DNA from: a virus
Direction: 5' to 3' (one strand)
Length of the DNA: 18,962 nt
UHGV virus genome: UHGV-0190812
The notes under the pieces: model-generated
Database searches by the model: none
Told to the model about the DNA's origin: nothing
Seen by the model: the letters and a program-made list of their open reading frames with translations, nothing else
In this document: one piece after another, positions 2,357 to 15,693 of the stretch
How the letters are laid out: every line of letters begins with the position of its first letter
Numbering within the stretch: the stretch's first letter is position 1
Translations under genes and position numbers: made by a program

Positions 2357-2914
2357 TCATGCAGCCTCCCGACGGGCAAGAATCCTTGAGCCGAACGCCA
2401 TCAACTCTCCACGATCAACGGTCGTAAAGTGGCAGTGTGTACGGGGGTATGGGTGCCAGATAATGAGCATCGAGCCTTTATTATTTCCACTGACGGGTTT
2501 CTCAGTGAGTGGGTTAATAAATGCCAGTCGTCCTGCCGTGATGAATCTGACCTCACTGGCGGTTTGTATCGCTTCATGAAACCATCCGACAGATGTGTCA
2601 GCAGGCAATAACATTACACATCCCACACTACTGAATTTGTTTTCAGTGGCTGCCTTTTTCACAAAAGGGGAAATATTGCTGTATGGTGGATTCAACCAGA
2701 CATAACCAGAGGCATATCCCATTGCTTCAGGCCATGAAGTGGTTAATGTGTTCTGCTCCTGTGAGATAAAAAGCCGACATAGTCGGTTTTTTTCGCTGGC
2801 GGCAGCATCAAGTTGAAAAACGAACTCTGCATTAAGCGCAGCAAAAATCTCTGGTGGTGTGCGCCAGCTGTCGCGATGTTCGGCAGGAGTATTGCTTCCG
2901 GTGAAATCAGTCAT
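2357..2914 (-). CDS. phage-type DNA N6-adenine methyltransferase (Dam family)
   Basis: 185-aa ORF with WRTPPEIF, LDAAAS and NPPYS motifs characteristic of phage Dam-type MTases (motif I / motif IV DPPY-like). Confidence 0.85.
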   Translation of the reverse strand: MTDFTGSNTPAEHRDSWRTPPEIFAALNAEFVFQLDAAASEKNRLCRLFISQEQNTLTTSWPEAMGYASGYVWLNPPYSNISPFVKKAATENKFSSVGCVMLLPADTSVGWFHEAIQTASEVRFITAGRLAFINPLTEKPVSGNNKGSMLIIWHPYPRTHCHFTTVDRGELMAFGSRILARREAA

Positions 2915-3068
2915 ACAGCCCCCGTTTATTATTTATCGCCTCAGCCAGCCGCTGTGCTTTCAGTGGATTTCTGATAACAGAAAGGCCGGGAAATACCCAG
3001 CCTCGCTTTGTAACGGAGTAGATGAAAGTGATCGCGCCTACCCGGATATTATCGTGAGGATGCTTCAT
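2907..3068 (-). CDS. small hypothetical protein, translationally coupled between exo and the methylase gene
   Basis: 53-codon ORF below the ORF-track size cut-off. Its ATG overlaps the exo stop (ATGA) and its stop overlaps the methylase ATG (ATGACTGA), as read by hand from the sequence. Confidence 0.3.
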
Positions 3069-3745
3069 CGCCATTGCTCCCCAAATACAAAACCAATTTC
3101 AGCCAGTGCCACGTCCATTTTTTCGATGAACTCCGGCACCATCTCGTCAAAATTCGCCATGTACTTTTCATTCCGCTCAATCACGACATAATGCAGGCCT
3201 TCACGCTTCATACGCGGGTCATAGTTGGCAAAGTACCAGGCATCTTTTCGCGTCACCCACATGCTGTACTGCACCTGGGCCATGTAAGCCGATTTTATGG
3301 CCTCGAAACCACCGAGCCGGAACTTCATGAAATCCCGGGAGGTAAACGGGCATTTCAGTTCAAGGCCGTTGCCGTCACTGCATAAACCATCGGGAGAGCA
3401 GGCGGTGCGCATACTTTCGTCGCGATAGATGATCGGGGATTCAGTAACATTCACGCCGGAAGTGAATTCAAACAGGGTTCTGGCGTCGTTCTCGTACTGT
3501 TTTCCCCAGGCCAGCGCCTTAGCATTAACTTCCGGAGCCACACCGGTGCAAACCTCAGCCAGCAGGGTGTGGAAGTAGGACATTTTCATGTCAGGCCACT
3601 TCTTTCCTGAGCGGGGCTTTGCTATCACGTTGTGAACTTCTGAAGCGGTGATGACGCCGAGCCGTAATTTGTGCCATGCATCATCCCCCTGTTCGACAGC
3701 TCTCACGTCGATCCCGGTACGCTGCAGGATAATGTCCGGTATCAT
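3065..3745 (-). CDS. exo: Red-alpha 5'-3' exonuclease (lambda Exo)
   Basis: 226-aa translation is near-identical over its whole length to lambda Exo as recalled ([54 protein letters not shown]...). Stop/start overlap with bet. Confidence 0.95.
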
Positions 3746-4527
3746 GCTGCCACCTTCTGCTCAGTGGCTTTCTGTTTCAGGAATCCAAGAGCTTTCACTG
3801 CTTCGGCCTGTGTCAGTTCTGACGATGCGCGAATGTCGCGGCGAAATATCTGGGAACAGAGCGGCAATAAGTCGTCATCCCATGTTTTATCCAGGGCGAT
3901 CAGCAGAGTGTTAATCTCCTGCATGGTTTCATCGTTAACCGGAGTGATGTCGCGTTCTGGCTGACGTTCTGCAGTGTATGCAGTATTTTCGACAATGCGC
4001 TCGGCTTCATCCTTGTCATAGATACCAGCAAATCCGAAGGCCAGACGGGCACACTGAATCATGGCTTTATGCCGTAACATCCGTTTGGGATGCGACTGCC
4101 ACGGCCCCGTGATTTCTCTGCCTTCGCGGGTTTTGAATGGTTCGCGGCGGCATTCATCCATCCATTCGGTAACGCAGATCGGATGATTACGGTCCTTGCG
4201 GTAAATCCGGCATGTACAGGATTCATTGTCCTGCTCAAAGTCCATGCCATCAAACTGCTGGTTTTCATTGATGATGCGGGACCAGCCATCAACGCCCACC
4301 ACCGGAACAATGCCGTTCTGCTTATCAGGGAAGGCGTAAATTTCTTTCGTCCACGGATTAAGGCCGTACTGGTTGGCGACGATCAGCAATGCGATGAACT
4401 GCGCATCGCTGGCATCACCTTTAAATGCCGTCTGGCGAAGAGTGGTGATCAGTTCCTGTGGGTCGACAGAATCCATGCCGACACGTTCAGCCAGCTTCCC
4501 TGCCAGCGTTGCGAGTGCTGTACTCAT
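3742..4527 (-). CDS. bet: Red-beta single-strand annealing protein (lambda Bet)
   Basis: 261-aa translation matches lambda Bet as recalled ([66 protein letters not shown]...). Confidence 0.95.
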
Positions 4528-4532
4528 CCGTT

Positions 4533-4829
4533 TTATACCTCTGAATCAATATCAACCTGGTGGTGAGCAATGGTTTCAACCATGTACCGGATGTGTTCTG
4601 CCATGCGCTCCTGAAACTCAACATCGTCATCAAACGCACGGGTAATGGCTTTTTTGCTGGCCCCGTGGCGTTGCAAATGATCGATGCATAGCGATTCAAA
4701 CAGGTGCTGGGGCAGGCCTTTTTCCATGTCGTCTGCCAGTTCTGCCTCTTTCTCTTCACGGGCGATCTGCTGGTAGTGACGCGCCCAGCTCTGAGCCTCA
4801 AGACGATCCTGAATGTAATAAGCGTTCAT
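4533..4829 (-). CDS. gam: Gam, RecBCD inhibitor (short GamS form)
   Basis: 98-aa translation matches the C-terminal 98 residues of lambda Gam as recalled ([21 protein letters not shown]...[10 protein letters not shown]). AGGAG Shine-Dalgarno upstream. Confidence 0.95.
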
Positions 4830-4904
4830 GGCTGAACTCCTGAAAATGGCTGTGAAAAAATCGCCCGCGGAATGCCAGGCTGATTCGGAAAACAGGAAAG
4901 GGGA

Positions 4905-5111
4905 TTAGTGATTCAGACCGTTGCCGCGTCCGTCGAGAAAAACTTCCACGAGCAAGTCACGGGTATAAGTGCGCTCAATGCCGCGATGCAGATAAAGTCG
5001 TCCGCGTAAATTAGCTGATGCAGTCCAGGTACCATCTTTGCGTTTGACCAGCATTCCTGGCATGACCGCACCGCGATTAACGGTCTGCGTTCCGTAATGT
5101 TGATGAACCAT
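4905..5111 (-). CDS. Kil-family (KilR-like) cell-division inhibitor, putative
   Basis: In-frame ATG at 5111 preceded by AGGAG (5-6 nt spacer) gives 68 aa: MVHQHYGTQTVNRGAVMPGMLVKRKDGTWTASAN...VFLDGRG. This resembles Rac KilR as I recall it (HHFGTDE...TYIASAN...VFLGRDG). It is the first gene downstream of pL. The track ORF extends to 5195 with a weaker RBS. Confidence 0.5.
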   Translation of the reverse strand: MVHQHYGTQTVNRGAVMPGMLVKRKDGTWTASANLRGRLYLHRGIERTYTRDLLVEVFLDGRGNGLNH

Positions 5112-5388
5112 AAAAACTCCTGCCCGTAAGCTGGGCTGCTGAACATATAAAGACTTCTGCGCGTATTCAGGCGGTGGATGGCCGCCGGTTGTCATAACTA
5201 AGCCGCCTCGTTGAAGCGACTAAGGTATGAAATGTTGAGTTGATTTCAGCTGGTCACACCGACGTTCACGCGTCCGTTTCATCCCTCGCACTCCCCGAAG
5301 CCTGCTGAAATTCAAGCTGCGGATCTAAGCGGTCATCGCAACGGTGAATCAGGTGGTTGCCGTATCGTTGTGTTGTTGCGATATGGTG

Positions 5389-5431
5389 ATAATAGCTATT
5401 GCTATTGGTGATATCAATACTTATTGCTATT
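5389..5431 (-). promoter_or_regulatory. pL-like promoter with OL operator repeats
   Basis: Minus strand TTGATA (5412-5417), 17-nt spacer, TATTAT (5389-5394). TATTGCTATT copies at 5397-5406 and 5422-5431, the same motif seen at OR. Confidence 0.45.
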
Positions 5432-5556
5432 AGTTGATGTGTTTTGATATTAAATGTTTGATAGCAAAAAGAATTAATTTTGTGACTTGCATCGCATAGC
5501 GATAACTGAAGTGAGGTTATGGTGGTTTTTTTAACGGTGTGTGTGATGAGGGGAGG

Positions 5557-5594
5557 GCAAAAGAAAACCCGGCACGGTGGCCGGGGGCTTTTTA
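5557..5594 (-). terminator. rho-independent terminator closing the repressor operon (tImm-like; bidirectional)
   Basis: Perfect 6-bp GC stem CCCGGC/GCCGGG (5568-5585) with 6-nt loop. On the minus strand it is followed by TTTTCTTTTG, 24 nt downstream of the 5618 stop; on the plus strand by GGCTTTTTA. Confidence 0.6.
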
Positions 5595-5617
5595 TAGTGT
5601 GTTAGGTAAATAGAATA

Positions 5618-6475
5618 TCAGCCTACTGTTCTAAAGATGAGAAGTGGTGTCATCCCATACGAATCACTTCCTCTACCAGCTTGTACCTTGACCATATCCA
5701 GGAAGGATTGTAATCCTGACTTGAGATCGTGTTCAGGGAAATCAGGGTTATTGATATTCTGATCTTGTACAGAATCTGGCAAGGCATCAATCAATCCAAT
5801 GACATGCCAGGTACCCGGTATGGTGCCACCATATTTTAAGGCTAAGTCATCAGGATTAATTGTTAAATATTCTTTATCAATAGACATCCACATCAGGTTG
5901 CCATTCTCATCAATAAAATCAACCTGGAGGATGTTGGGAACGATATTAATGAGTTTCTTAACTACACCAATGGTAAGCCCTGGAGATATCTCAATTTCAT
6001 CTGGGGTGAGTTTTCCTTTAAGCTTCGCTTTGGCTTTTGGGGGAAGGTTGACCGTGTTTAATTGTGCTTGGGCTATCTCACCAAAAATAGGCATAATTTT
6101 CTGAATAGTTGACACATCAAAAATGCGCATTTTTCCAACAGAATGAACAACTGAACCAAGATTCTCACCATTAAGTCCAGTTTTAATCATTCCTGCTTCA
6201 TCTAATTTATCGAGAAAATTAATTGGTAATGACCATGAAGCGTCGAAAGTTTTCTCTTGCGAATGTGTTAAGGTGTCGTCAGTCCCCACTTTTCCTTTAA
6301 GAATCTTGACGCTCAATTCAACGGATTTATTAGATTTATCTGTGTCAGAAGTAGTTTGTTTTACGCTCGTCACTACACCAGCATTGTGAAGCTGGGCTGT
6401 GAGGGAGCTAACGCGTACACGGTCTATGTAAAGAAAATCAAATAGTGAATCTGTGCTTTGTTGTTCGAGCTCCAT
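5618..6475 (-). CDS. hypothetical protein, 285 aa (304 aa if started at 6532); repressor-linked cargo, function unknown
   Basis: Long minus-strand ORF between the cI-like gene and pL. ATG at 6475 with AGAGAGGA about 8 nt upstream; alternative ATG at 6532. Appears AT-rich by eye relative to flanking modules. No motif I can assign (no kinase, nuclease, ATPase or TM signatures noted). Confidence 0.6.
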   Translation of the reverse strand: MELEQQSTDSLFDFLYIDRVRVSSLTAQLHNAGVVTSVKQTTSDTDKSNKSVELSVKILKGKVGTDDTLTHSQEKTFDASWSLPINFLDKLDEAGMIKTGLNGENLGSVVHSVGKMRIFDVSTIQKIMPIFGEIAQAQLNTVNLPPKAKAKLKGKLTPDEIEISPGLTIGVVKKLINIVPNILQVDFIDENGNLMWMSIDKEYLTINPDDLALKYGGTIPGTWHVIGLIDALPDSVQDQNINNPDFPEHDLKSGLQSFLDMVKVQAGRGSDSYGMTPLLIFRTVG

Positions 6476-6617
6476 TTTGCCAATCCTCTCTAAATTTTTC
6501 TTTTTCCTCGCGAATTCTTTTTTGCTTTTCATCTATCTCATCGAAAAGTTGAATGAGTTCATCCACACCATGTGAAGGCGTCTCTGATTTCACTTTCTTC
6601 AAAATTTTCTTGAACAT
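6438..6617 (-). CDS. small charged hypothetical protein (59 aa), possible partner of the downstream 285-aa protein
   Basis: First ATG of the 6438-6695 ORF (MFKKILKKVKSETPSHGVDELIQLFDEIDEKQKRIREEKEKFREDWQNGARTTKHRFTI). Overlaps the 5' end of the next gene in another frame. No convincing Shine-Dalgarno. Confidence 0.3.
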   Translation of the reverse strand: MFKKILKKVKSETPSHGVDELIQLFDEIDEKQKRIREEKEKFREDWQNGARTTKHRFTI

Positions 6618-6766
6618 GATGATTTTCCATAGAGAACTGACTGTACAAATTATGTTCTCTTTGTCACATGAAAGCAACTGCACCAGGACAAGCAAAGTGT
6701 GTCTCCAAAGATCGCTTTAATCACATGTTACAGCTTTTTTGTCAGCTTTGGTCCCATGAAGACGCT

Positions 6767-7459
6767 TTACCCATGCTTCCTGTATGTCTGCGGCATGCTC
6801 CCAATAACCTTACCGAAGATGAACACCCGGTTCATCTCGTCTTTCTCGATCGGGTCCCACGGTGAGTAGCTCTTGTTATCAGAGATAACCAGCAGCTTAT
6901 CCTTCATCATTTGCAGGCGCTTTACATGGGCTGTGTCGTCGTACAGAAACGCATAGATACCATCACCGTCGAAAGATTTAACCGTGATATCAACGAACAG
7001 CAGATCACCTGGTTCGATCGTTCCTGACATGCTGTCACCACGCACGTTAATGATGCGGATATTTTCCGCCTTCCTGCCATCGAACATGTGACGAGCATCG
7101 TCAAACGAGTACTCAACCGAGCGTAGAACTTCTACAAACTCACGGTTGATTACACCCGGCCCGGCACTGACTTCTATATCAAGAACGTCAATCTTGAAGT
7201 ATTTTGAATGGCTGACAGCAGGCTTCCCTGATTGTTGACCGTCATTTCTCATCGGGCCTATGCCTGATGAGAGCCATTCTGTTCGAACACCCAATGCATT
7301 AGCTATTTCAACAATTTTTGTTGAGCCGCGCGCGTTGCCGCTTGTCAGTCTCCAGATTGTGGGTTGAGCTACGCCAGACGCCTTTGCAAGAGCGCCTTGA
7401 GACATTCCAGATTGTTCCATCGCTAGGTTTAAGCGATCAGCAAGAGTTTCTTTTTTCAT
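6767..7459 (-). CDS. cI: CI-like prophage repressor (HTH N-domain plus S24 LexA-like autopeptidase C-domain)
   Basis: HTH segment (MSQGALAKASGVAQPTIWRLTSG); Ala-Gly cleavage site (EVSAGPG), Ser in GDSMSG and Lys in HVKRL consistent with RecA-stimulated self-cleavage. ATG at 7459 sits right after a pRM-like promoter, giving a near-leaderless mRNA as in lambda; the track start at 7495 is a TTG inside the promoter. Confidence 0.85.
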   Translation of the reverse strand: MKKETLADRLNLAMEQSGMSQGALAKASGVAQPTIWRLTSGNARGSTKIVEIANALGVRTEWLSSGIGPMRNDGQQSGKPAVSHSKYFKIDVLDIEVSAGPGVINREFVEVLRSVEYSFDDARHMFDGRKAENIRIINVRGDSMSGTIEPGDLLFVDITVKSFDGDGIYAFLYDDTAHVKRLQMMKDKLLVISDNKSYSPWDPIEKDEMNRVFIFGKVIGSMPQTYRKHG

Positions 7460-7461
7460 AA

Positions 7462-7560
7462 GTTTTAATTTATACGCTTGCGTATTGATGGTCAAAACAC
7501 GTTTTGCTATTGCTTGAATTAATACGCATTGCTATTATTCATTCATTGCAATACCAATAG
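7462..7560. promoter_or_regulatory. OR region: divergent pRM-like and pR-like promoters with operator repeats
   Basis: pR (+): TTGCTT 7510-7515, 17-nt spacer, TATTAT 7533-7538. pRM (-): TTGACC (rc of 7490-7495), 16-nt spacer, ATAAAT (rc of 7468-7473). TTGCTATT motif at 7504-7511 and 7529-7536 overlaps pR -35/-10; a third palindromic site CATTGCAATA near 7544-7553. Confidence 0.5.
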
Positions 7561-7563
7561 GAA

Positions 7564-7797
7564 TTGATAATGACAAATCAAACCATTCAACTCGCAATCA
7601 GTATTACAGGTAGTCAAAAACGACTGGCAGATCTATGCGGTGTAGCCCAACCCACAGTTTGGCGTTGGCTACACGGTGGCGGAATTGATGCCCGCTATGT
7701 AATGAAAATTGTCTCAGCCACTGGTGGAAAGATTAAACCAGCAGATATTCGTCCCGACCTCGCACCATTGTTTAACGCGAGTAATTCTGCCGCCTAA
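7564..7797 (+). CDS. cro: Cro-like repressor (YdaS/Cro HTH family)
   Basis: 77-aa ORF immediately downstream of pR; HTH segment SQKRLADLCGVAQPTVWRWLHGG; AGGA Shine-Dalgarno. Confidence 0.75.
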   Translation: MIMTNQTIQLAISITGSQKRLADLCGVAQPTVWRWLHGGGIDARYVMKIVSATGGKIKPADIRPDLAPLFNASNSAA

Positions 7798-7821
7798 ACT
7801 GCGGCGTTAACTGATAAGGCA

Positions 7822-8367
7822 ATGACTATGCAACCACTTACATACCAACAGACTAGCGGATTTAGCCCGACTGCGGTGATAAATCGTTCTCAAACAAAAC
7901 AGGCGCCAGGCCACGAAAAAATCCGTGATGCCGTTCGCGCCTGGTCGGCTGCAGATAATCAGGATGTTGTTGCCGCACTCATTGTGAATGAGTATCGGGA
8001 GCAGGGCGGCGGCACCATCGATTTCCCTGATGATGTCAGCCGTGCACGCCAGAAGCTGTTCCGCTTCCTCGATAACAAATTCGATTCTGAAAAATACCGA
8101 AATAACGTGCGTGAACTGACCCCGGCAATTCTGGCGGTACTACCGCTGGAATATCGCGGCCACCTGGTTGAGCAGGATAGCTACATGGCTCGGCTGGCTG
8201 AAATGGAAAAGGAACTCAGTGAGGCAAAACAGGCTGTCATTCTCAACGCACCACGCCACCAGAAACTGAAGGAGATGAGTGAAGGCATTGTGTCGATGTT
8301 TCGTGTGGACCCGGATTTGGCTGGTCCACTGATGGCGATGGTCACCACCATGCTGGGGGCAATATGA
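7822..8367 (+). CDS. YdaT-family protein in the cII position (putative lysis-lysogeny regulator)
   Basis: 181-aa ORF between cro and O. EYREQGGG and PAILAVLPLEYRGHL segments resemble Rac YdaT as recalled from memory. Stop overlaps the next ORF (ATGA). Confidence 0.6.
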   Translation: MTMQPLTYQQTSGFSPTAVINRSQTKQAPGHEKIRDAVRAWSAADNQDVVAALIVNEYREQGGGTIDFPDDVSRARQKLFRFLDNKFDSEKYRNNVRELTPAILAVLPLEYRGHLVEQDSYMARLAEMEKELSEAKQAVILNAPRHQKLKEMSEGIVSMFRVDPDLAGPLMAMVTTMLGAI

Positions 8368-8453
8368 CAGGTTCGGAAATGGCGAAAGCCGGTCTGCGCG
8401 AACAGAACCGACTTTCAGGTGCAAATCGTAACACACTCATTGCGGGAGGAATT

Positions 8454-9383
8454 ATGGCAAACACTGCTGAGATATTCAATTTTCCAGTGCCGGATGTGGC
8501 ACAAAAGGAGCGGCGCGTGGCAGATCTCGACGATGGTTATACGCGCATTGCAAATGAGTTGCTGGAAGCTGTGATGCTGGCCGGATTAACACAGCACCAG
8601 CTTCTGGTCTTCCTGGCTGTCATGCGCAAAACATATGGCTTTAATAAAAGACTGGATTGGGTGAGCAACGAGCAACTTTCCGAATTGACCGGGATATTGC
8701 CGCACAAGTGTTCTGCTGCAAAAAGCGTTCTGGTAAAGCGTGGGATTCTTATTCAGAGCGGGCGGAATATCGGCATTAATAATGTGGTCAGTGAATGGTC
8801 AACATTACCCGAATCAGGTAAGAAAAATAAAGTTTACCTGAAAGAGGTAAATTTACCTGAATCAGGTAAGAAAAGTTTACCCAAATCAGGTAAAGGCGTT
8901 TACCCGAATCAGGTAAACACAAAAGACAAACTAACAAAAGACAATATAAAACCTTTTTCGTCCGAGAATTCTGGCGAATCCTCTGACCAACCAGAAAACG
9001 ATCTTCCTGTGGTGAAACCGGATGCTGCAATTCAGAGCGGCAGCAAGTGGGGGACAGCAGAAGACCTGACCGCCGCAGAGTGGATGTTTGACATGGTGAA
9101 GACCATCGCGCCATCAGCCAGAAAACCGAATTTTGCAGGGTGGGCTAACGATATCCGCCTGATGCGTGAACGTGACGGACGTAACCACCGCGACATGTGC
9201 GTGCTGTTCCGCTGGGCATGCCAGGACAACTTCTGGTCCGGTAACGTGCTAAGTCCGGCCAAACTCCGCGACAAGTGGACCCAGCTCGAAATCAACCGAA
9301 ACAAGCAACAGGCTGGCGTGACAGCCGGCAAACCAAAACTCGACCTGACGAACACTGACTGGATTTACGGGGTGGAGCTATGA
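8454..9383 (+). CDS. O: replication initiator O (lambda O family) containing the origin iterons
   Basis: From the ATG at 8454 (GGGAGGA Shine-Dalgarno) the N-terminus MANTAEIFNFP...RVADLDDGYTRIANELLEA...LLVFLAVMRKTYGFNK parallels lambda O (MTNTAKILNF...NVADLDDGYARL...VLLAILRKTYGWNK). An in-frame upstream start at 8364 is also possible. Confidence 0.85.
   Translation: MANTAEIFNFPVPDVAQKERRVADLDDGYTRIANELLEAVMLAGLTQHQLLVFLAVMRKTYGFNKRLDWVSNEQLSELTGILPHKCSAAKSVLVKRGILIQSGRNIGINNVVSEWSTLPESGKKNKVYLKEVNLPESGKKSLPKSGKGVYPNQVNTKDKLTKDNIKPFSSENSGESSDQPENDLPVVKPDAAIQSGSKWGTAEDLTAAEWMFDMVKTIAPSARKPNFAGWANDIRLMRERDGRNHRDMCVLFRWACQDNFWSGNVLSPAKLRDKWTQLEINRNKQQAGVTAGKPKLDLTNTDWIYGVEL
8805..8917. repeat. 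ori iterons: four to five ~18-bp internally palindromic repeats TTACC(C/T)GAATCAGGTAA(G/A) followed by an A/T-rich stretch
   Basis: Copies at about 8805, 8853, 8877 and 8900 (23-24 bp or multiples apart), plus a degenerate copy at about 8834. The A/T-rich run 8917-8955 lies immediately downstream. Same architecture as the lambda origin inside O. Confidence 0.7.
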
Positions 9384-10081
9384 AAAACATCGCCGCACAG
9401 ATGGTTAACTTTGACTGTGAGCAGATGCGCCGGATCGCCAACAACATGCCGGAACAGTACGACGAAAAGCCACAGGTACAGCAGGTAGCGCAGATCATCA
9501 ACGGTGTGTTCAGCCAGTTACTGGCAACTTTCCCGGCGAGCCTGGCTAACCGTGACCAGAATGAACTGAACGAAATCCGCCGCCAGTGGGTTCTGGCTTT
9601 CCGGGAAAACGGGATCACCACAATGGAACAGGTTAACGCTGGAATGCGCGTAGCCCGTCGGCAGAATCGACCATTCCTGCCATCACCCGGGCAGTTTGTC
9701 GCCTGGTGCCGGGAAGAAGCATCTGTTAACGCCGGGCTGCCAAACGTCAGCGAGCTGGTTGATATGGTTTACGAGTATTGCCGGAAGCGTGGCCTGTATC
9801 CGGATGCAGAGTCTTATCCGTGGAAATCGAACGCGCATTACTGGTTGGTTACCAACTTGTACCAGAACATGCGGGCCAATGCGCTGACTGACGCGGAATT
9901 ACGGCGCAAGGCTGCCGATGAACTGACCTGTATGACAGCGCGAATTAACCGTGGTGAGACGATACCTGAACCAGTAAAACAACTTCCTGTTATGGGCGGT
10001 AGACCTCTAAATCGTGCACAGGCTCTGGCGAAGATCGCAGAAATCAAAGCTAAGTTTGGGCTGAAAGGAGCAAGTGTATGA
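9380..10081 (+). CDS. P: replication protein P (DnaB helicase loader)
   Basis: 233-aa translation is near-identical to lambda P as recalled (MKNIAAQMVNFD.EQMRRIANNMPEQYDEKPQVQQVAQIINGVFSQLLATFPASLANRDQNE...). Confidence 0.95.
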   Translation: MKNIAAQMVNFDCEQMRRIANNMPEQYDEKPQVQQVAQIINGVFSQLLATFPASLANRDQNELNEIRRQWVLAFRENGITTMEQVNAGMRVARRQNRPFLPSPGQFVAWCREEASVNAGLPNVSELVDMVYEYCRKRGLYPDAESYPWKSNAHYWLVTNLYQNMRANALTDAELRRKAADELTCMTARINRGETIPEPVKQLPVMGGRPLNRAQALAKIAEIKAKFGLKGASV

Positions 10082-10262
10082 CGGGCAAAGAAAGATTCTT
10101 CGTTACTTGAAGAAATACAGTGTTTATTGTTCTTTTGAGATGTTGCGAAAACAGGAATTACCACGGTAAACATTTTGTAGCTGACCCATGCATTGATGAA
10201 ATATTGTGGGTATTTAATAGAGCATAATTATCAAGTTGCGTAAGATGTGGAGTAATGGTATG

Positions 10263-10288
10263 GGCGGTGTTAGCACCGCCTTTAATTA
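10263..10288. terminator. hairpin between P and the 115-aa gene (possible weak terminator)
   Basis: GGCGGTG-TTAG-CACCGCC perfect 7-bp stem followed on the plus strand by TTTAATT; weak U-tract. Confidence 0.3.
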
Positions 10289-10633
10289 AAGCTCAGAAAG
10301 CTGTAATAATATTTTTTCTGGAGTGGTTTCGTTGGAAATGCTAAATAATACAGCACCTTTGACTGATTCATCTCTCATTTCAATTTCACATGAATTATGG
10401 TTGTATGAGATTGCATAATTTTTTAATGTTCTTTCGCTTTGCCACCACACCATATTTGCAAGACTTCCGTTATACGTTCTTATCTCGATTGATCCGGGCA
10501 GGGCTTTCCAGATAACACCTCCTAGCAATGTAAGAGCGGCTGCACCAACATTTTTTGCATGATGGTTAGAACGTTCCATTACCCCTTCAGCATAACGATG
10601 AAGAATCTCTATGTCAGTCGCTTTGATAGTCAT
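10286..10633 (-). CDS. hypothetical protein, 115 aa; reverse-oriented AT-rich moron in the ren slot
   Basis: ORF opposite in orientation to the flanking replication and nin genes, with visibly lower GC and an AT-rich upstream region (10634-10860) containing an extended -10-like TGCTATATT on the minus strand. No family recognised. Confidence 0.55.
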   Translation of the reverse strand: MTIKATDIEILHRYAEGVMERSNHHAKNVGAAALTLLGGVIWKALPGSIEIRTYNGSLANMVWWQSERTLKNYAISYNHNSCEIEMRDESVKGAVLFSISNETTPEKILLQLSEL

Positions 10634-10862
10634 GTTATTTCCATGTAATTGCTGTGTGAAACGTAGTGTTAGTTAGGTGTTAGCAGAATATAGCATCAAA
10701 GTCGAAACCGGTAGAAAAAATATTGGTGATTATTTCGCTGCATTTGGAACTGGAACAACAATGATTATTAGCATGATTGCTTTTTCCAGTCATAAGAATG
10801 AGTCGTGTTAATTTTTTCTATTCAATAGGAAATTATCATGTCATCAGAATATGAACAACTAT

Positions 10863-10960
10863 GGTGACTTCTGCGCTAAACGGGGACGTTTATGCGCACA
10901 TACAATCCAAACTCTCTTCTCCCTCCACAGATGCAGAAATACACCTGCGATTTTTTGCAT
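10863..10960. repeat. ~98-bp direct repeat, copy A (tR2-like terminator module upstream of the cassette)
   Basis: About 95% identical by eye to 13348-13446 (GGTGACTTCTGCGCTAAACGGGGACGTTTATGCGCACA...CACCTGCG-T(7)-GCAT); contains a short GC stem plus T-run. Confidence 0.8.
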
Positions 10961-11111
10961 TCGGTGTTTTTGGCAGCCAAGAACAGGGAGTCTCTGTTTG
11001 TCTGGCGGCTAAAGGTGATATGGAAATCGTGATGTCTTAGCCTAAAGTAGTTGCAACAGTTGGAGCGATTATGGTGGTAGTAGTGATCATCGCGCCCCCC
11101 ATATGCAAGGG

Positions 11112-11224
11112 TTGACGACATTATTTATCCGGCGCTATATTCTGTGCGTTGCCGCAAAATCGGCACACGGGATTGGCGTCCCGGAATACTACTCAACGCA
11201 TACCGCGTTAAGCGGTTTTTTTAT
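11112..11224 (+). promoter_or_regulatory. promoter plus ~75-nt structured leader ending in an intrinsic terminator (attenuator or small RNA) upstream of the Bro-N gene
   Basis: TTGACG (11112-11117), 18-nt spacer, TATATT (11136-11141). Downstream stem-loops TGCCG/CGGCA and CGGGA/TCCCG, then ACCGC-GTTAA-GCGGT followed by T(7) at about 11202-11222. Confidence 0.35.
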
Positions 11225-11378
11225 GCGCTAAGCACGGCTACGCCCAAATTATGGTGGGCTGTGTGAGGGCTTCTTCGGGAGCGCCGGGTTTGAGTAGCCG
11301 GTTACGCCAACCTTGCACAGTTCACCACCAGTCGATTGGCGTCGTTGGTGGTGATGGTTAACCTGATGAGGTGATACT

Positions 11379-11939
11379 ATGACTACTCAATTAGCATTCC
11401 ACAAAACGACGTTTACCCCAATTTGCCACAATAACAGAATTTGGCTTACTGCCACTGAAGTTGGTTTAGCTCTGGAATATGCGGACGATAAAGCAGTTCA
11501 GCGCATTTACTCTCGTCACTCAGATGAATTTACAGATATGATGACAAGGGTGGTCAAAGTGACCACCCCTCGTGGAATGCAGGAGTCTCGAGTATTTAGC
11601 CTTCGCGGAGCCCATTTGATCGCCATGTTTGCACGAACTCCTGTAGCCAAAGAGTTCCGCCGCTGGGTTCTGGATATTCTCGATCGAGAAGTTCAACAAT
11701 CCCCAATCATAAAACAATTCACTGATAACGAACTTTGCACACTTGCTTGGTTATGGCGAGCAGGGGATGTGATGTTAACCGCCTGCCAGAATGTTACTCC
11801 ACTTCTTCAGGTTGCGGAGCACCGCGAAGCTGGTCGCTTTACTTCTATCGGGCAAGAATATCCCCAGATACTACATAAGGCGCGCGAAATCCTTGCCAGA
11901 GAAACGGCACCATGTAAAACTCCAGCCTTGGCAGGATAA
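11379..11939 (+). CDS. Bro-N domain protein (putative antirepressor-like)
   Basis: 186-aa ORF. N-terminal FHKTTFTPICHNNRIWLTATEVGLALEY...IYSRHSDEF...VFSLRGAHLIAMFARTPVAKEFRRWVLDIL fits the Bro-N fold motif pattern of phage antirepressors. GAGGTGA Shine-Dalgarno. Confidence 0.7.
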   Translation: MTTQLAFHKTTFTPICHNNRIWLTATEVGLALEYADDKAVQRIYSRHSDEFTDMMTRVVKVTTPRGMQESRVFSLRGAHLIAMFARTPVAKEFRRWVLDILDREVQQSPIIKQFTDNELCTLAWLWRAGDVMLTACQNVTPLLQVAEHREAGRFTSIGQEYPQILHKAREILARETAPCKTPALAG

Positions 11940-12150
11940 TAAGTGGAGCAGGGTGTTGCCACATTTGCGTCAGGATAGATTGCAATAGTTTTACATATTA
12001 GGCGCTGAATGGATGCAATCAGATAGCGCACTGGGCGGCAATGATTAAGGCTTCAGATAAGCCAAGTAAGCACTGAAAAAGTTCAATGTAATCAAATTCT
12101 CTTTATGGTATTTTCGTTAGACATCTCATACGCTTAGATGGAAATTTGAA

Positions 12151-12351
12151 ATGATGTATTCAGTAACTTTCGATGAAACTGGACGAGTAGAAGATATTGA
12201 ACTAGAGCGTGAGGTTAGAGCCGGAGATAGACTCTCGCTTAATATTGATGGTCTTGATGGTATTTATATAGTCATGACTGTTAGCGGCCCTATCTATGAA
12301 AATGTTTGTGTGCCAATGAATATCCGGGTTCAAAAGTATTGGAAGCAATGA
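12151..12351 (+). CDS. hypothetical small protein (66 aa)
   Basis: ORF within the repeat-flanked cassette, followed directly by a hairpin terminator. Weak Shine-Dalgarno; no family recognised. Confidence 0.3.
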   Translation: MMYSVTFDETGRVEDIELEREVRAGDRLSLNIDGLDGIYIVMTVSGPIYENVCVPMNIRVQKYWKQ

Positions 12352-12356
12352 TGTAT

Positions 12357-12385
12357 AATCCCCTCAGATGATCGAGGGGATTTTT
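12357..12385 (+). terminator. intrinsic terminator hairpin whose 3' arm contains the Shine-Dalgarno of the next ORF
   Basis: ATCCCCTC-AGATGAT-GAGGGGAT stem (8 bp) followed by TTTTT, then the ATG at 12386; the GAGGGGA in the 3' arm is the only Shine-Dalgarno for that ORF. Confidence 0.45.
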
Positions 12386-12559
12386 ATGTCAGATTGGAAC
12401 ATTGCAGCAAAACCGCAAGAGGAACGTGACAATGTTAACTTTGACCTTGCTGCGTCTGGTGTTGCATATAAAGAACGCTCCAAAATTCTCGTCATAGCCG
12501 AAGTGGTGATGTGCCAGCAACCAGAGCATCTTTGTGATTACTTCATGGAGCGCGTCTGA
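12386..12559 (+). CDS. hypothetical small protein (57 aa)
   Basis: ATG at 12386 with GAGGGGA 5 nt upstream; the track ORF starts 18 nt earlier at 12368. No family recognised. Confidence 0.35.
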   Translation: MSDWNIAAKPQEERDNVNFDLAASGVAYKERSKILVIAEVVMCQQPEHLCDYFMERV

Positions 12560-12631
12560 CTTCTCCATTGAGCATAGCATCACCCAGCCTAAAACATCTG
12601 ACCCTAGATATATGAAACAGGAGGAAGATAA

Positions 12632-13264
12632 ATGAAATTCTCTCGAATTGAACAAAGCCCAACAACGGATGAGGGTAATTACGTGAAAATCGATCATGAC
12701 TTTGGCTATTTTCTAGATCCTAATAAAATGGCCTCGATAGCTAACTATGAGGATGAGTCTGCCGCGCTATTAAAATTGATGCTAATTCATGAGGACTTTC
12801 TTCGGGTTGTTATTGAAAACTTACGACCTGATGGCTCTGAAAAATACAATTCGATAAGAAGCTATAAGTATTTTGCGTCAAAGCTGTCTGCCGCAGTTCT
12901 GTTAGGGCTTCCTGTCTCGCTTGCAGACGCTATGGCTGAGCTCAACACAATACGTAACAAGTACGCTCATAAAATTGAATATGTAATTACAAATGAAGAG
13001 GTTGATAAACTCGCAGAATCGATTAAAAACATAAAGTTAGAAGAGATTAACCATGGTGGCTACGTGCATCAAGTTGTTGAGCCAATTCTCAAGGATGGAA
13101 TCTACGCTATAGCGTTGATGAAAGAGCTACCTCCTGATCTTGAAGAAAATCGCATTCGTATTTGTAAGTTAGTCACTAGCGCGCATTGTATGTGTTTGCT
13201 CGGGGCCTTCTGGTTAATTAACACTCTGCACGTAAAGGGTAAGCTCAAGCTTTCCAAGGCCTGA
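12632..13264 (+). CDS. hypothetical protein (210 aa) with HEPN-like Rx4H motif; candidate abortive-infection or toxin RNase
   Basis: Strong AGGAGG Shine-Dalgarno. Markedly AT-rich by eye. Contains ELNTIRNKYAHK (R-x4-H in an RN..AH context, as in HEPN families such as Abi_2 or DUF4145). The assignment is inference from this one motif. Confidence 0.6.
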   Translation: MKFSRIEQSPTTDEGNYVKIDHDFGYFLDPNKMASIANYEDESAALLKLMLIHEDFLRVVIENLRPDGSEKYNSIRSYKYFASKLSAAVLLGLPVSLADAMAELNTIRNKYAHKIEYVITNEEVDKLAESIKNIKLEEINHGGYVHQVVEPILKDGIYAIALMKELPPDLEENRIRICKLVTSAHCMCLLGAFWLINTLHVKGKLKLSKA

Positions 13265-14748: not shown

Positions 14749-14878
14749 GTCTTATATGGCAGAACGTCTTCGCCACCGCAGGATGCGCCTGCGCTTATAT
14801 CGTTTCCCCGGTTCTGTTTTGACCGATTACCGGATACTGAAGAATTACGCCAAAACACTGAAAGGAGCTGCCGCATGA
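14741..14878 (+). CDS. ylcG: YlcG-like small protein
   Basis: 45-aa ORF below the track cut-off ([45 protein letters not shown]). Overlaps the rusA stop and the Q start (ATGA). Matches DLP12 YlcG as recalled. Confidence 0.5.
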
Positions 14879-15564
14879 ATACCCAATATTTACAGTATGT
14901 CCGCGAGCAACTCATTGTGGCTACTGCTGATTTGAGCGGAGCAACGAAAGGCCAGCTTGAAGCCTGGCTGGAGCATGCACAATTTGATACTGGTACATAT
15001 AAACGAAAGAAGCCGCGCATTCTGGATGAGGTAACGGGCAAGATGATTACGCTGGATAATCCGCCGATTTCCGGTAAGCAGTCGTACGCAAAAGGTTCAT
15101 CCATTGCACTGGTCAGCCAGGTTGAGTTCTCAACATCTTCATGGCGCCGCGCGGTTCTGTCTCTCGAAGAACATCAGAAAGCGTGGTTGCTGTGGAGTTA
15201 CAGTGAAAACATCAGCTTTGAATACCAGGTGGCGATCACCCAGTGGGCGTGGTCTGAATTCAGGGGGTATCTCGGCGCGAAGAGGGTGGCAGGCAAGACC
15301 ATGGAGCGCCTGAAGAAGCTGATATGGCTGGCAGCGCAGGATGTCAAAGCAGGGTTGGTCGGGAAAGATGCCTACGAATACCAGAAGCTGGCGGAACTGG
15401 TTGGCGTGGCGAAATCCACCTGGACAGAGACATACCTGCCTCACTGGTTGGCAATGCGTAGCTGCTTTATGCGACTCGATAGCGGTGCGCTTATCTCAGT
15501 AACGCGATCACGTTCACAACAAAAGGCGACAAGTTCGCACGTAAGTCTTGCAAAACCGAACTGA
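14875..15564 (+). CDS. late-gene antiterminator Q (QuuD-like)
   Basis: 229-aa ORF directly after rusA-ylcG, upstream of a candidate late promoter and the lysis cassette. Assignment by synteny and length; no motif independently verified. Confidence 0.6.
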   Translation: MNTQYLQYVREQLIVATADLSGATKGQLEAWLEHAQFDTGTYKRKKPRILDEVTGKMITLDNPPISGKQSYAKGSSIALVSQVEFSTSSWRRAVLSLEEHQKAWLLWSYSENISFEYQVAITQWAWSEFRGYLGAKRVAGKTMERLKKLIWLAAQDVKAGLVGKDAYEYQKLAELVGVAKSTWTETYLPHWLAMRSCFMRLDSGALISVTRSRSQQKATSSHVSLAKPN

Positions 15565-15693
15565 AACGCTTATATTTCATGTAAATCTGATATCGTCGCC
15601 ATAGCTTTGTTGGTCGACAAAGAATTAACAGCCTCGCCATCGTGCGGGGCTTTTACTTTACATGCTGTGAACACAAAAAAAGTAACTTTTATG

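Follow-up and report, generated by a model that had tools for sequence, protein, structure and literature searches.

A DUF6414 (DolA-family) protein and an overlapping 59-residue protein form a mobile cargo pair of temperate phages and a candidate anti-phage module in an E. coli lambda-like prophage

We analyzed a stretch of 18,962 nucleotides from the viral genome UHGV-0190812 (hereafter the window), a lambda-like prophage of E. coli, and report on an AT-rich cassette on the minus strand (5596-6766) that sits between a cI-like repressor gene and the left operator and promoter (OL/pL). The cassette carries two overlapping open reading frames (ORFs), a small ORF of 59 codons and a large ORF of 285 codons, the product of which is by its profile matches a divergent member of the Pfam family DUF6414, the family of DolA. 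Comparisons of homologous loci show the pair to be conserved and to move as a unit among temperate phages, nearly always in prophage cargo positions. On balance, we consider it somewhat more likely than not that the pair acts against phages, as a module related to Dodola that is expressed in the lysogen and regulates itself. A first reading of the window made from its letters alone (the sequence-only reading) had placed a charged ORF of 59 residues, overlapping an ORF of 285-304 residues, in a slot equivalent to that of lambda rexAB and co-oriented with cI, and the features listed below agree with it on all of these points, with the pair (6438-6617 and 5618-6475 or 6532) between OL and a repressor with helix-turn-helix (HTH) and S24 peptidase domains (6767-7459) on the same strand.

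5596-6766, minus strand: swapped cargo cassette, composed of promoter, small ORF and DUF6414 ORF (BLASTN against IAI1, GC content)
6767-7459 (or 7495), minus strand: cI-like repressor (HTH_3 plus Peptidase_S24), the co-oriented neighbor upstream of the pair (Pfam; WP_001295669.1 in the Prokaryotic Genome Annotation Pipeline, PGAP)
6649-6677, minus strand: the pair's own predicted sigma-70-type promoter, with -35 box TTGCTT (6677-6672), a 17-nt spacer and -10 box CATAAT (6654-6649) (alignment of distant loci)
6631-6660, minus strand: palindrome AGAGAAC-N16-GTTCTCT with arms at 6660-6654 and 6637-6631, a candidate operator that extends across the -10 box and the probable start of transcription
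6438-6617, minus strand: small ORF, encoding a basic helical protein of 59 residues, isoelectric point (pI) 9.4, about 7 kDa (translation, conservation, ratio of nonsynonymous to synonymous substitutions, dN/dS)
6484-6490, minus strand: Shine-Dalgarno element GAGAGGA of the large ORF, inside the small ORF (read from the sequence; the element is kept in most lineages)
5618-6475, minus strand: large ORF, encoding an acidic protein of 285 residues, pI 5.06, about 31 kDa, a divergent DUF6414/DolA-family member with a predicted domain resembling an oligonucleotide/oligosaccharide-binding (OB) fold (Pfam, AlphaFold2)
5558-5595, minus strand: intrinsic terminator, stem 5585-5568, T-run 5567-5558 (terminator scan)
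5383-5480, minus strand: OL/pL region downstream of the cargo (operator repeats in common with the right operator, OR; pL-like promoter)

The GC content of the cassette is 0.390 (5596-6766), versus 0.508 in 3065-5595 and 0.509 in 7564-10081. The IAI1 prophage has the same backbone and an identical repressor protein (WP_001295669.1), and BLASTN homology between the two prophages breaks exactly at 5595/5596 and at 6767/6768, with genes for ImmA/IrrE and DUF4411 located in the slot of IAI1 in place of segment 5596-6767. Given the difference in GC content and the exact swap in IAI1, the comparison indicates that the cassette has been acquired horizontally, as had been suspected from its AT-richness. 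It is a discrete insertion with a deviant base composition that is variable among collinear phages, and these are among the features by which prophage cargo genes ("morons") are recognized.

The terminator before OL, which had been noted previously as a strong GC hairpin that closes the two genes, is indeed present on the minus strand (CCCGGCCACCGTGCCGGG followed by TTTTCTTTTG; six GC pairs and a T-run, 5585 to 5568), but it consists of backbone DNA outside the swapped cargo. The segment 5400-5595, including the terminator, is common at 93-97% to approximately 2000 E. coli genomes with other cargo. Because homology with the sister prophages runs through position 5595, the terminator belongs to the phage backbone and would close any cargo located in the slot. 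OL was identified by a 50-nt block with operators (5383-5432) that is repeated in OR beside cro at 7488-7537 (direct repeat D1, 74%), and the inverted repeats I2, I5 and I9 were also found in the OL/pL region. The promoter scan located a pL-like promoter (TTGATA-17-TATTAT) at 5417 to 5389 and a pRM-like promoter at the repressor gene at 7495 to 7467. In the segment 5112-5617, no ORF resembling N separates the kil-like gene (4905-5111) from pL, and PGAP annotates no coding sequence there in sister prophages; the prophage carries a Q gene and no obvious N gene. The pL leader (5196-5385) shows no unusual degree of structure (z = -0.66), and no RNA families were identified in 5150-6800 with Rfam.

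The slot between the repressor gene and OL has been filled in many different ways. The repressor family was identified in 2209 of 5426 complete E. coli genomes (about 40%), and in five further genomes that were sampled the slot contained a HipA kinase with DUF3037, a 353-residue protein with ASCH, two different pairs of hypothetical proteins, or no genes at all. Counting ImmA/IrrE plus DUF4411 in IAI1, there are at least six alternative contents (L002, L052-L056), and the comparison points to a genuine cargo hotspot in a position equivalent to that of lambda rexAB. Several of the alternative cargos are themselves uncharacterized candidates. Also the pair itself varies within this slot: in TUM9868 (L057, 4359-5340), which has the same backbone and slot and an identical repressor protein, the large proteins are only 52% identical and the small proteins 41% identical to those encoded in the window. 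A divergent allele of the pair is also present in strain B1S11. Divergence of alleles within one slot is a typical sign of pressure on genes to diversify or to be replaced.

To define the gene models and their conservation we used 28 unique homologous pairs, while 25 unique sequences were used for the upstream regions. Counted from its first ATG, the minus-strand ORF at 5618-6532 has 304 codons. However, in 22 of the 28 pairs an ATG or GTG is located exactly 12 codons before a near-invariant aspartate (Asp13), most of these starts are preceded by a Shine-Dalgarno sequence of the GAGGA/AGGAG type 8-10 nt on the 5' side, and in six lineages this codon is the only candidate start. Since the start 12 codons before Asp13 is conserved, we adopted the model of 285 codons with the start at ATG 6475, which is also the model used by PGAP, and rejected the start at 6532. 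The Shine-Dalgarno element inside the small ORF implies an initiation of the large ORF that would be independent yet coupled to translation of the small ORF.

The large protein, which the sequence-only reading had been unable to place in a family, matches PF19952 (DUF6414) with 41.1-41.3 bits against a gathering cut-off of 25 (E 2e-10, residues 12-240 of 285), and 87 of the 112 members of its clade match this model at E<=1e-3. It also matches PHROG 9699, a family of unknown function (E 4e-73). An exhaustive search recovered relatives in 819 clusters at 50% identity (E<=1e-3); among the best 150 of these 819 clusters nearly all are stand-alone proteins of approximately 250-330 residues, with a few fragments and none longer than 357 residues. 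No transmembrane segment is predicted for the large protein (the highest hydropathy over 19 residues is 1.33), and neither protein has Pfam matches to RexA or RexB, both as expected from the previous inspection of the translations.

The AlphaFold2 model of the large protein, based on an alignment of 112 sequences, is confident (predicted local distance difference test, pLDDT, 91.4; predicted template modeling score, pTM, 0.83). The OB-fold resemblance of the model, to RPA14/32, Ten1/Stn1 and the anticodon-binding domains of AsnRS and AspRS, concerns one domain only with identities of 6-16%, and in the predicted structure we regard it as a likeness of fold, with no family membership shown. Structural modeling, which had been suggested as a check, yielded in this manner a confident OB-fold-like domain, but the Foldseek search of PDB and BFVD with the model gave nothing at E<=1e-3, and a profile search of PDB sequences recovered no solved relative of the large protein.

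The small ORF, which encodes a protein with the sequence MFKKILKK...KHRFTI, is present in all 28 pairs, and in each of them it overlaps the large ORF by the same 38 nt. The stop codon TGA of the small ORF straddles codons 12 (F/Y) and 13 (D) of the large ORF, and because of this placement the overlap is fixed in every lineage examined. In the 46 non-overlapping codons we estimated a median dN of 0.34, a median dS of 1.19 and a dN/dS ratio of 0.28, as expected under purifying selection, and each of the 36 pairs compared showed stops in both other frames. Conservation in the small protein is highest at the C-terminus, where the 38-nt overlap encodes the motif G-[AS]-R-x-x-[KN]-[HN]-R-F-x-[ILV]; this motif is retained from E. 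coli to Methylobacterium, Agrobacterium and a metagenome-assembled genome (MAG) of the Myxococcota. Taken together, the conservation and substitution patterns indicate that the small ORF is a genuine gene. AlphaFold2 predicts two helices in the small protein (residues 2-12 and 16-58; pLDDT 72) and a tail of low confidence. No family was identified for the small protein (6441-6617) in Pfam and PADLOC, where only sub-threshold matches to DUF7399 (E 0.076) and PDC-S46 (E 0.008) were recovered, both of which were treated as coiled-coil noise. In some RefSeq genomes PGAP names the small protein a "regulator of G-protein signaling domain-containing protein" (in others a "hypothetical protein"), a name that has no Pfam support and is apparently spurious. 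A programmed frameshift that fuses the two ORFs was also considered and rejected: the large ORF is located in the +1 frame, and conservation extends both to its separate Shine-Dalgarno sequence and start codon and to the stop codon and C-terminal motif of the small ORF.

Upstream of the small ORF, the pattern TTG(C/A)TT-N17-CATAAT is common to distant loci, and in an alignment of six such loci, including the Serratia and Rosenbergiella pairs in tail modules, the TTG and CATA.T columns are invariant. The more relaxed pattern TTGnnn-N16-18-[CT]ATA[AC]T was found in 19 of the 25 unique upstream regions. Because the pattern is conserved across distant loci, even those in tail modules, the pair appears to bring its own promoter. 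The terminator scan identified no terminator-like site between cI and the pair, and read-through from pRM or pRE is therefore also possible. Both modes of expression had been proposed earlier: co-transcription with cI is compatible with the lack of a terminator-like site, but the pair has its own conserved promoter in addition; the local promoter was recovered as a conserved element, and dependence on pRM is not required. Transcription from the early lytic promoter does not reach the pair, since pL is located downstream and points away.

The palindrome AGAGAAC-N16-GTTCTCT, the left arm of which is located upstream of the -10 box, has one match in the window, as compared to 0.01 expected by chance. 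Perfect arms of 7-12 bp were identified in 15 of the 25 unique upstream regions. Their sequences include symmetric variants such as AAGGAAC/GTTCCTT and AGAACAT/ATGTTCT, and the palindrome upstream of the Agrobacterium pair is unrelated, with 12-bp arms (CAAAAGTTAACA-N18-TGTTAACTTTTG). The palindrome looks like a DNA operator that may have co-evolved with a regulator encoded by the module rather than like an RNA hairpin.

We also examined the distribution of the pair and the contexts in which it occurs. Homologous pairs were identified in Enterobacteriaceae, Bordetella, Moraxella, Acinetobacter, Methylobacterium, Agrobacterium, Pseudochrobactrum and one Myxococcota MAG, and 26 viral contigs in IMG/VR contain the pair. 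A scan of genome contigs with a single protein as the query recovered one locus. In Klebsiella and other Enterobacteriaceae, the pair is located in Rac-like prophages beside a short repressor that consists of the HTH domain only, in Kluyvera it is found beside a related cI, and in the Bordetella avium phages IFTN1-9 it follows directly after the annotated repressor gene. Other pairs are located after tail-fiber genes (Serratia), embedded, on the other strand, among the tail and baseplate genes of a myovirus (Rosenbergiella), within tail modules (the Moraxella phages Mcat13 and Mcat17 and an Acinetobacter phage), at the end of a Mu-like prophage (Martelella) or in prophage-like regions (Methylobacterium and Myxococcota), while only partial matches were obtained in the Moraxella phages Mcat15 and Mcat16. 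In Agrobacterium leguminum (L017, 5001-8582), the pair is located after the lysis genes of a prophage and adjoins genes for ThsB_TIR, LD_cluster3 and TIR_2 proteins, an arrangement that looks like a small defense cluster at the prophage end. The pair adjoins an IS1595 transposase gene in one metagenome contig, and in Pseudochrobactrum it occupies a chromosomal locus, the 5-kb flanks of which are devoid of phage genes. No true plasmids were found to carry the pair. The co-oriented upstream gene codes for a repressor in 34 of 44 informative loci, representing at least five unrelated or divergent repressor types, and the co-occurrence with repressors in other prophages, which the sequence-only reading had put forward as a check, is hence a recurrent feature.

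Dodola is a system of two components, DolA and DolB, that was reportedly described by Millman and colleagues in 2022. With Dodola the pair has in common the DUF6414 domain, the organization as a two-gene module and the size of DolA, approximately 280-300 residues. DUF6414 (PF19952) has been identified as the DolA component of Dodola (bioRxiv 10.1101/2024.10.26.620412; DefensePredictor supplement, PMC13092281), and DolA itself gives only weak structural matches to DNA- and RNA-binding proteins (PMC11514479), as compared to OB folds for the large protein studied here. In contrast, the second component of Dodola is DolB, a ClpB-like AAA+ protein, instead of which the pair has a conserved upstream overlapping ORF of 59 codons, and the clade to which our large protein belongs is centered on the Proteobacteria, phage-borne and characterized by low Pfam scores. 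Because of the lack of a DolB neighbor and of a match to the curated hidden Markov model (HMM) of DolA, the pair should not be filed as Dodola.

Lambda rexAB, sieB and the stk kinase gene of phage 933W are cargo genes of the lambdoid immunity region. The position of the pair is that of rexAB, between the repressor gene and OL, co-oriented with the repressor gene and with expression in the lysogen possible, and in both cases the slot is variable among related phages. There is no relation in sequence or domains to the Rex proteins; RexB is a polytopic membrane protein, of which there is none in the pair, and unlike rexAB the pair has its own promoter and occurs also far from repressor genes. The arrangement is likewise reminiscent of type II toxin-antitoxin systems in that a small upstream gene overlaps a larger one, with suggested coupling, opposite charges of the products and a palindrome over the -10 box. 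The likeness is confined to layout: no antitoxin DNA-binding fold or toxin fold is recognized, and the overlap, which codes for the best-conserved portion of the small protein, is of unusual length (38 nt). A literature search recovered no paper that describes the pair, with recent work on prophage defense in E. coli covered only in part, so that the pair may have been named there.

We propose that the pair acts as a self-contained two-gene cargo that has been inserted between the repressor gene and OL of a lambda-like prophage without N. In the lysogen, its own sigma-70 promoter would drive transcription, probably joined by read-through from pRM or pRE. Transcripts would end at the backbone terminator before OL, and the palindrome over the promoter would most likely serve as an operator through which a product of the module regulates its own synthesis. 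Translation of the basic helical protein of 7 kDa would be coupled to that of the acidic DUF6414 (DolA) protein of 31 kDa. The two proteins may form a module of the superinfection-exclusion or abortive-infection type, with the small protein in place of the AAA+ partner DolB. The small protein would hold the DolA-like protein in check, or regulate it, as in a toxin-antitoxin pair, and the DolA-like protein might act on a nucleic acid or a phage protein once an infection perturbs the complex. Such a toxin-antitoxin-like mechanism, in which a small protein restrains or regulates an OB-fold protein, is suggested by gene order, coupling, opposite charges and the putative operator, and by analogy we put it forward as a tentative possibility.

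A role in defense has become more plausible through the membership in the DolA family, the hotspot context and the allelic diversity. The anti-phage reading further draws on the cargo positions in temperate phages, the presence in the same hotspot of kinase and toxin-antitoxin-like cargos, the TIR neighbors in one prophage and a promoter that is independent of the lytic program. That a prophage hotspot holds a defense-like cargo is of itself no surprise. Several observations weigh against the anti-phage reading. No gene for a DolB-like (ClpB-like AAA+) ATPase was found in the window or within 5-6 kb of the pair in the approximately 15 contexts examined, so that the known logic of Dodola may not transfer to the pair, and the Dodola system, although validated and broad-spectrum, is listed with an unknown mechanism (PMC12322248). 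The best E-value to PF19952 among the 112 clade members is 3e-14, which is weak and makes the kinship with functional DolA proteins distant. The comparison with defense models that had been suggested as a check was negative: the large protein has no match at E<=1 in PADLOC-DB 2.0, which includes the DolA HMM, and there are no PADLOC matches at E<=0.01 across the 112 clade members. The Pfam, structure and profile searches revealed neither a catalytic motif nor a known toxin fold or DNA-binding domain. The palindrome is a putative operator, and the protein that would bind it is likewise conjectural. Finally, the DUF6414 pair is rare, being present in only 9 of the 5426 complete E. coli genomes, of which seven carry the allele of the window and two a divergent allele.

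Three other explanations were considered. The pair could be a selfish addiction module of the toxin-antitoxin type that stabilizes the cassette or the prophage without acting against other phages, and both its type II layout (a small upstream gene overlapping a larger one, opposite charges and a palindrome over the promoter) and its movement as an autonomous unit would agree with this. No toxin-antitoxin domain was, however, identified in either protein in Pfam, NCBIfam, PHROGs and PADLOC. Addiction modules are common on plasmids, but the pair is nearly confined to cargo positions in phages and was not found on plasmids, and the occurrence of two divergent alleles in one slot on one backbone fits an arms race better. 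We consider pure addiction unlikely; since many toxin-antitoxin pairs also defend, it overlaps in part with the anti-phage reading. About equally improbable in our view is a regulatory or lysogenic-conversion accessory outside immunity, such as a nucleic-acid-binding factor that tunes prophage maintenance, induction or host physiology. An OB-fold-like domain suggests binding to nucleic acids or proteins with no obvious effector activity, the pair usually adjoins a repressor gene and no defense model matches it, all of which would suit an accessory. But the pair is also located in tail and lysis modules and beside unrelated repressors in phages with different immunity regions, and these varied contexts make a role tied to the regulatory circuit of one phage unlikely; moreover, sister prophages with the same repressor have an empty slot or other cargo.

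The explanation that we find the least convincing, and very unlikely, is that the pair is a counter-defense factor, in which the DolA-like protein serves as a decoy that poisons or sequesters Dodola-like or other immune components of the host. Such a factor could well be a phage-borne homolog of a defense component without its ATPase partner, and the pair is present in the genomes of isolated phages. Yet it lies upstream of pL, co-oriented with the repressor gene and so untouched by the early lytic promoters; a promoter of the housekeeping type and a probable operator for autoregulation agree with expression in the lysogen, and DolB was found neither in the window nor in any locus examined.

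If the anti-phage reading is correct, the pair would be a new two-gene system for phage-borne immunity, an addition to the catalog of cargos in the repressor-OL hotspot and a pointer to the Dodola component that carries the activity. It is a 1.2-kb relative of Dodola without an ATPase in an E. coli lambda-like prophage, with clearly delimited parts: promoter, candidate operator, microprotein and putative effector. More speculatively, the pair could exemplify a widespread, hitherto uncharacterized phage-borne immune module, in which an ATPase-free DolA-type OB-fold sensor or effector is controlled by a microprotein with a tail encoded in the start region of the effector gene. This module would extend over approximately 800 clusters at 50% identity in several proteobacterial classes and the Myxococcota. 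In that case DolA, and not DolB, would carry the essential activity of Dodola, and the minimal version in E. coli would offer a tractable route to the mechanism of Dodola.

Several other features of the prophage were observed. A gene for a Dam-family N6-adenine methyltransferase (2357-2914, minus strand; Pfam E 2e-56, PADLOC orphan methyltransferase) is located in the early-left region and is absent from the sister prophage in 2022CK-00450. Between the replication gene P and the antirepressor region, a gene for a protein of the integron-cassette family VCH_CASS14 (10286-10633, minus strand) is located in an AT-rich segment (10000-11000, GC 0.38) and looks like another inserted cargo gene. The Rfam search identified isrK (60.7 bits) and C4 antisense RNA (72.7 bits) at 11150-11332 on the plus strand, immediately 5' of an antirepressor-like ORF with Bro-N and P22AR-C domains (11379-11939, plus strand), and the segment 11150-11939 looks like an antirepressor unit of the P1/P7 or Gifsy type that is controlled by a small RNA. 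An ORF of 210 codons (12632-13264, plus strand) in a low-GC patch (12000-13200) has weak matches of the HEPN type (DUF4145, E 0.011; HEPN_RiboL-PSP, E 0.038; Swt1-like HEPN, E 0.05; PADLOC Csm6, E 0.011) and may be a second cargo or defense candidate. Directly 3' of the gene for the antiterminator Q (14875-15564), an Rfam match to isrJ (64.9 bits) at 15580-15653 on the plus strand probably corresponds to the pR' leader region.

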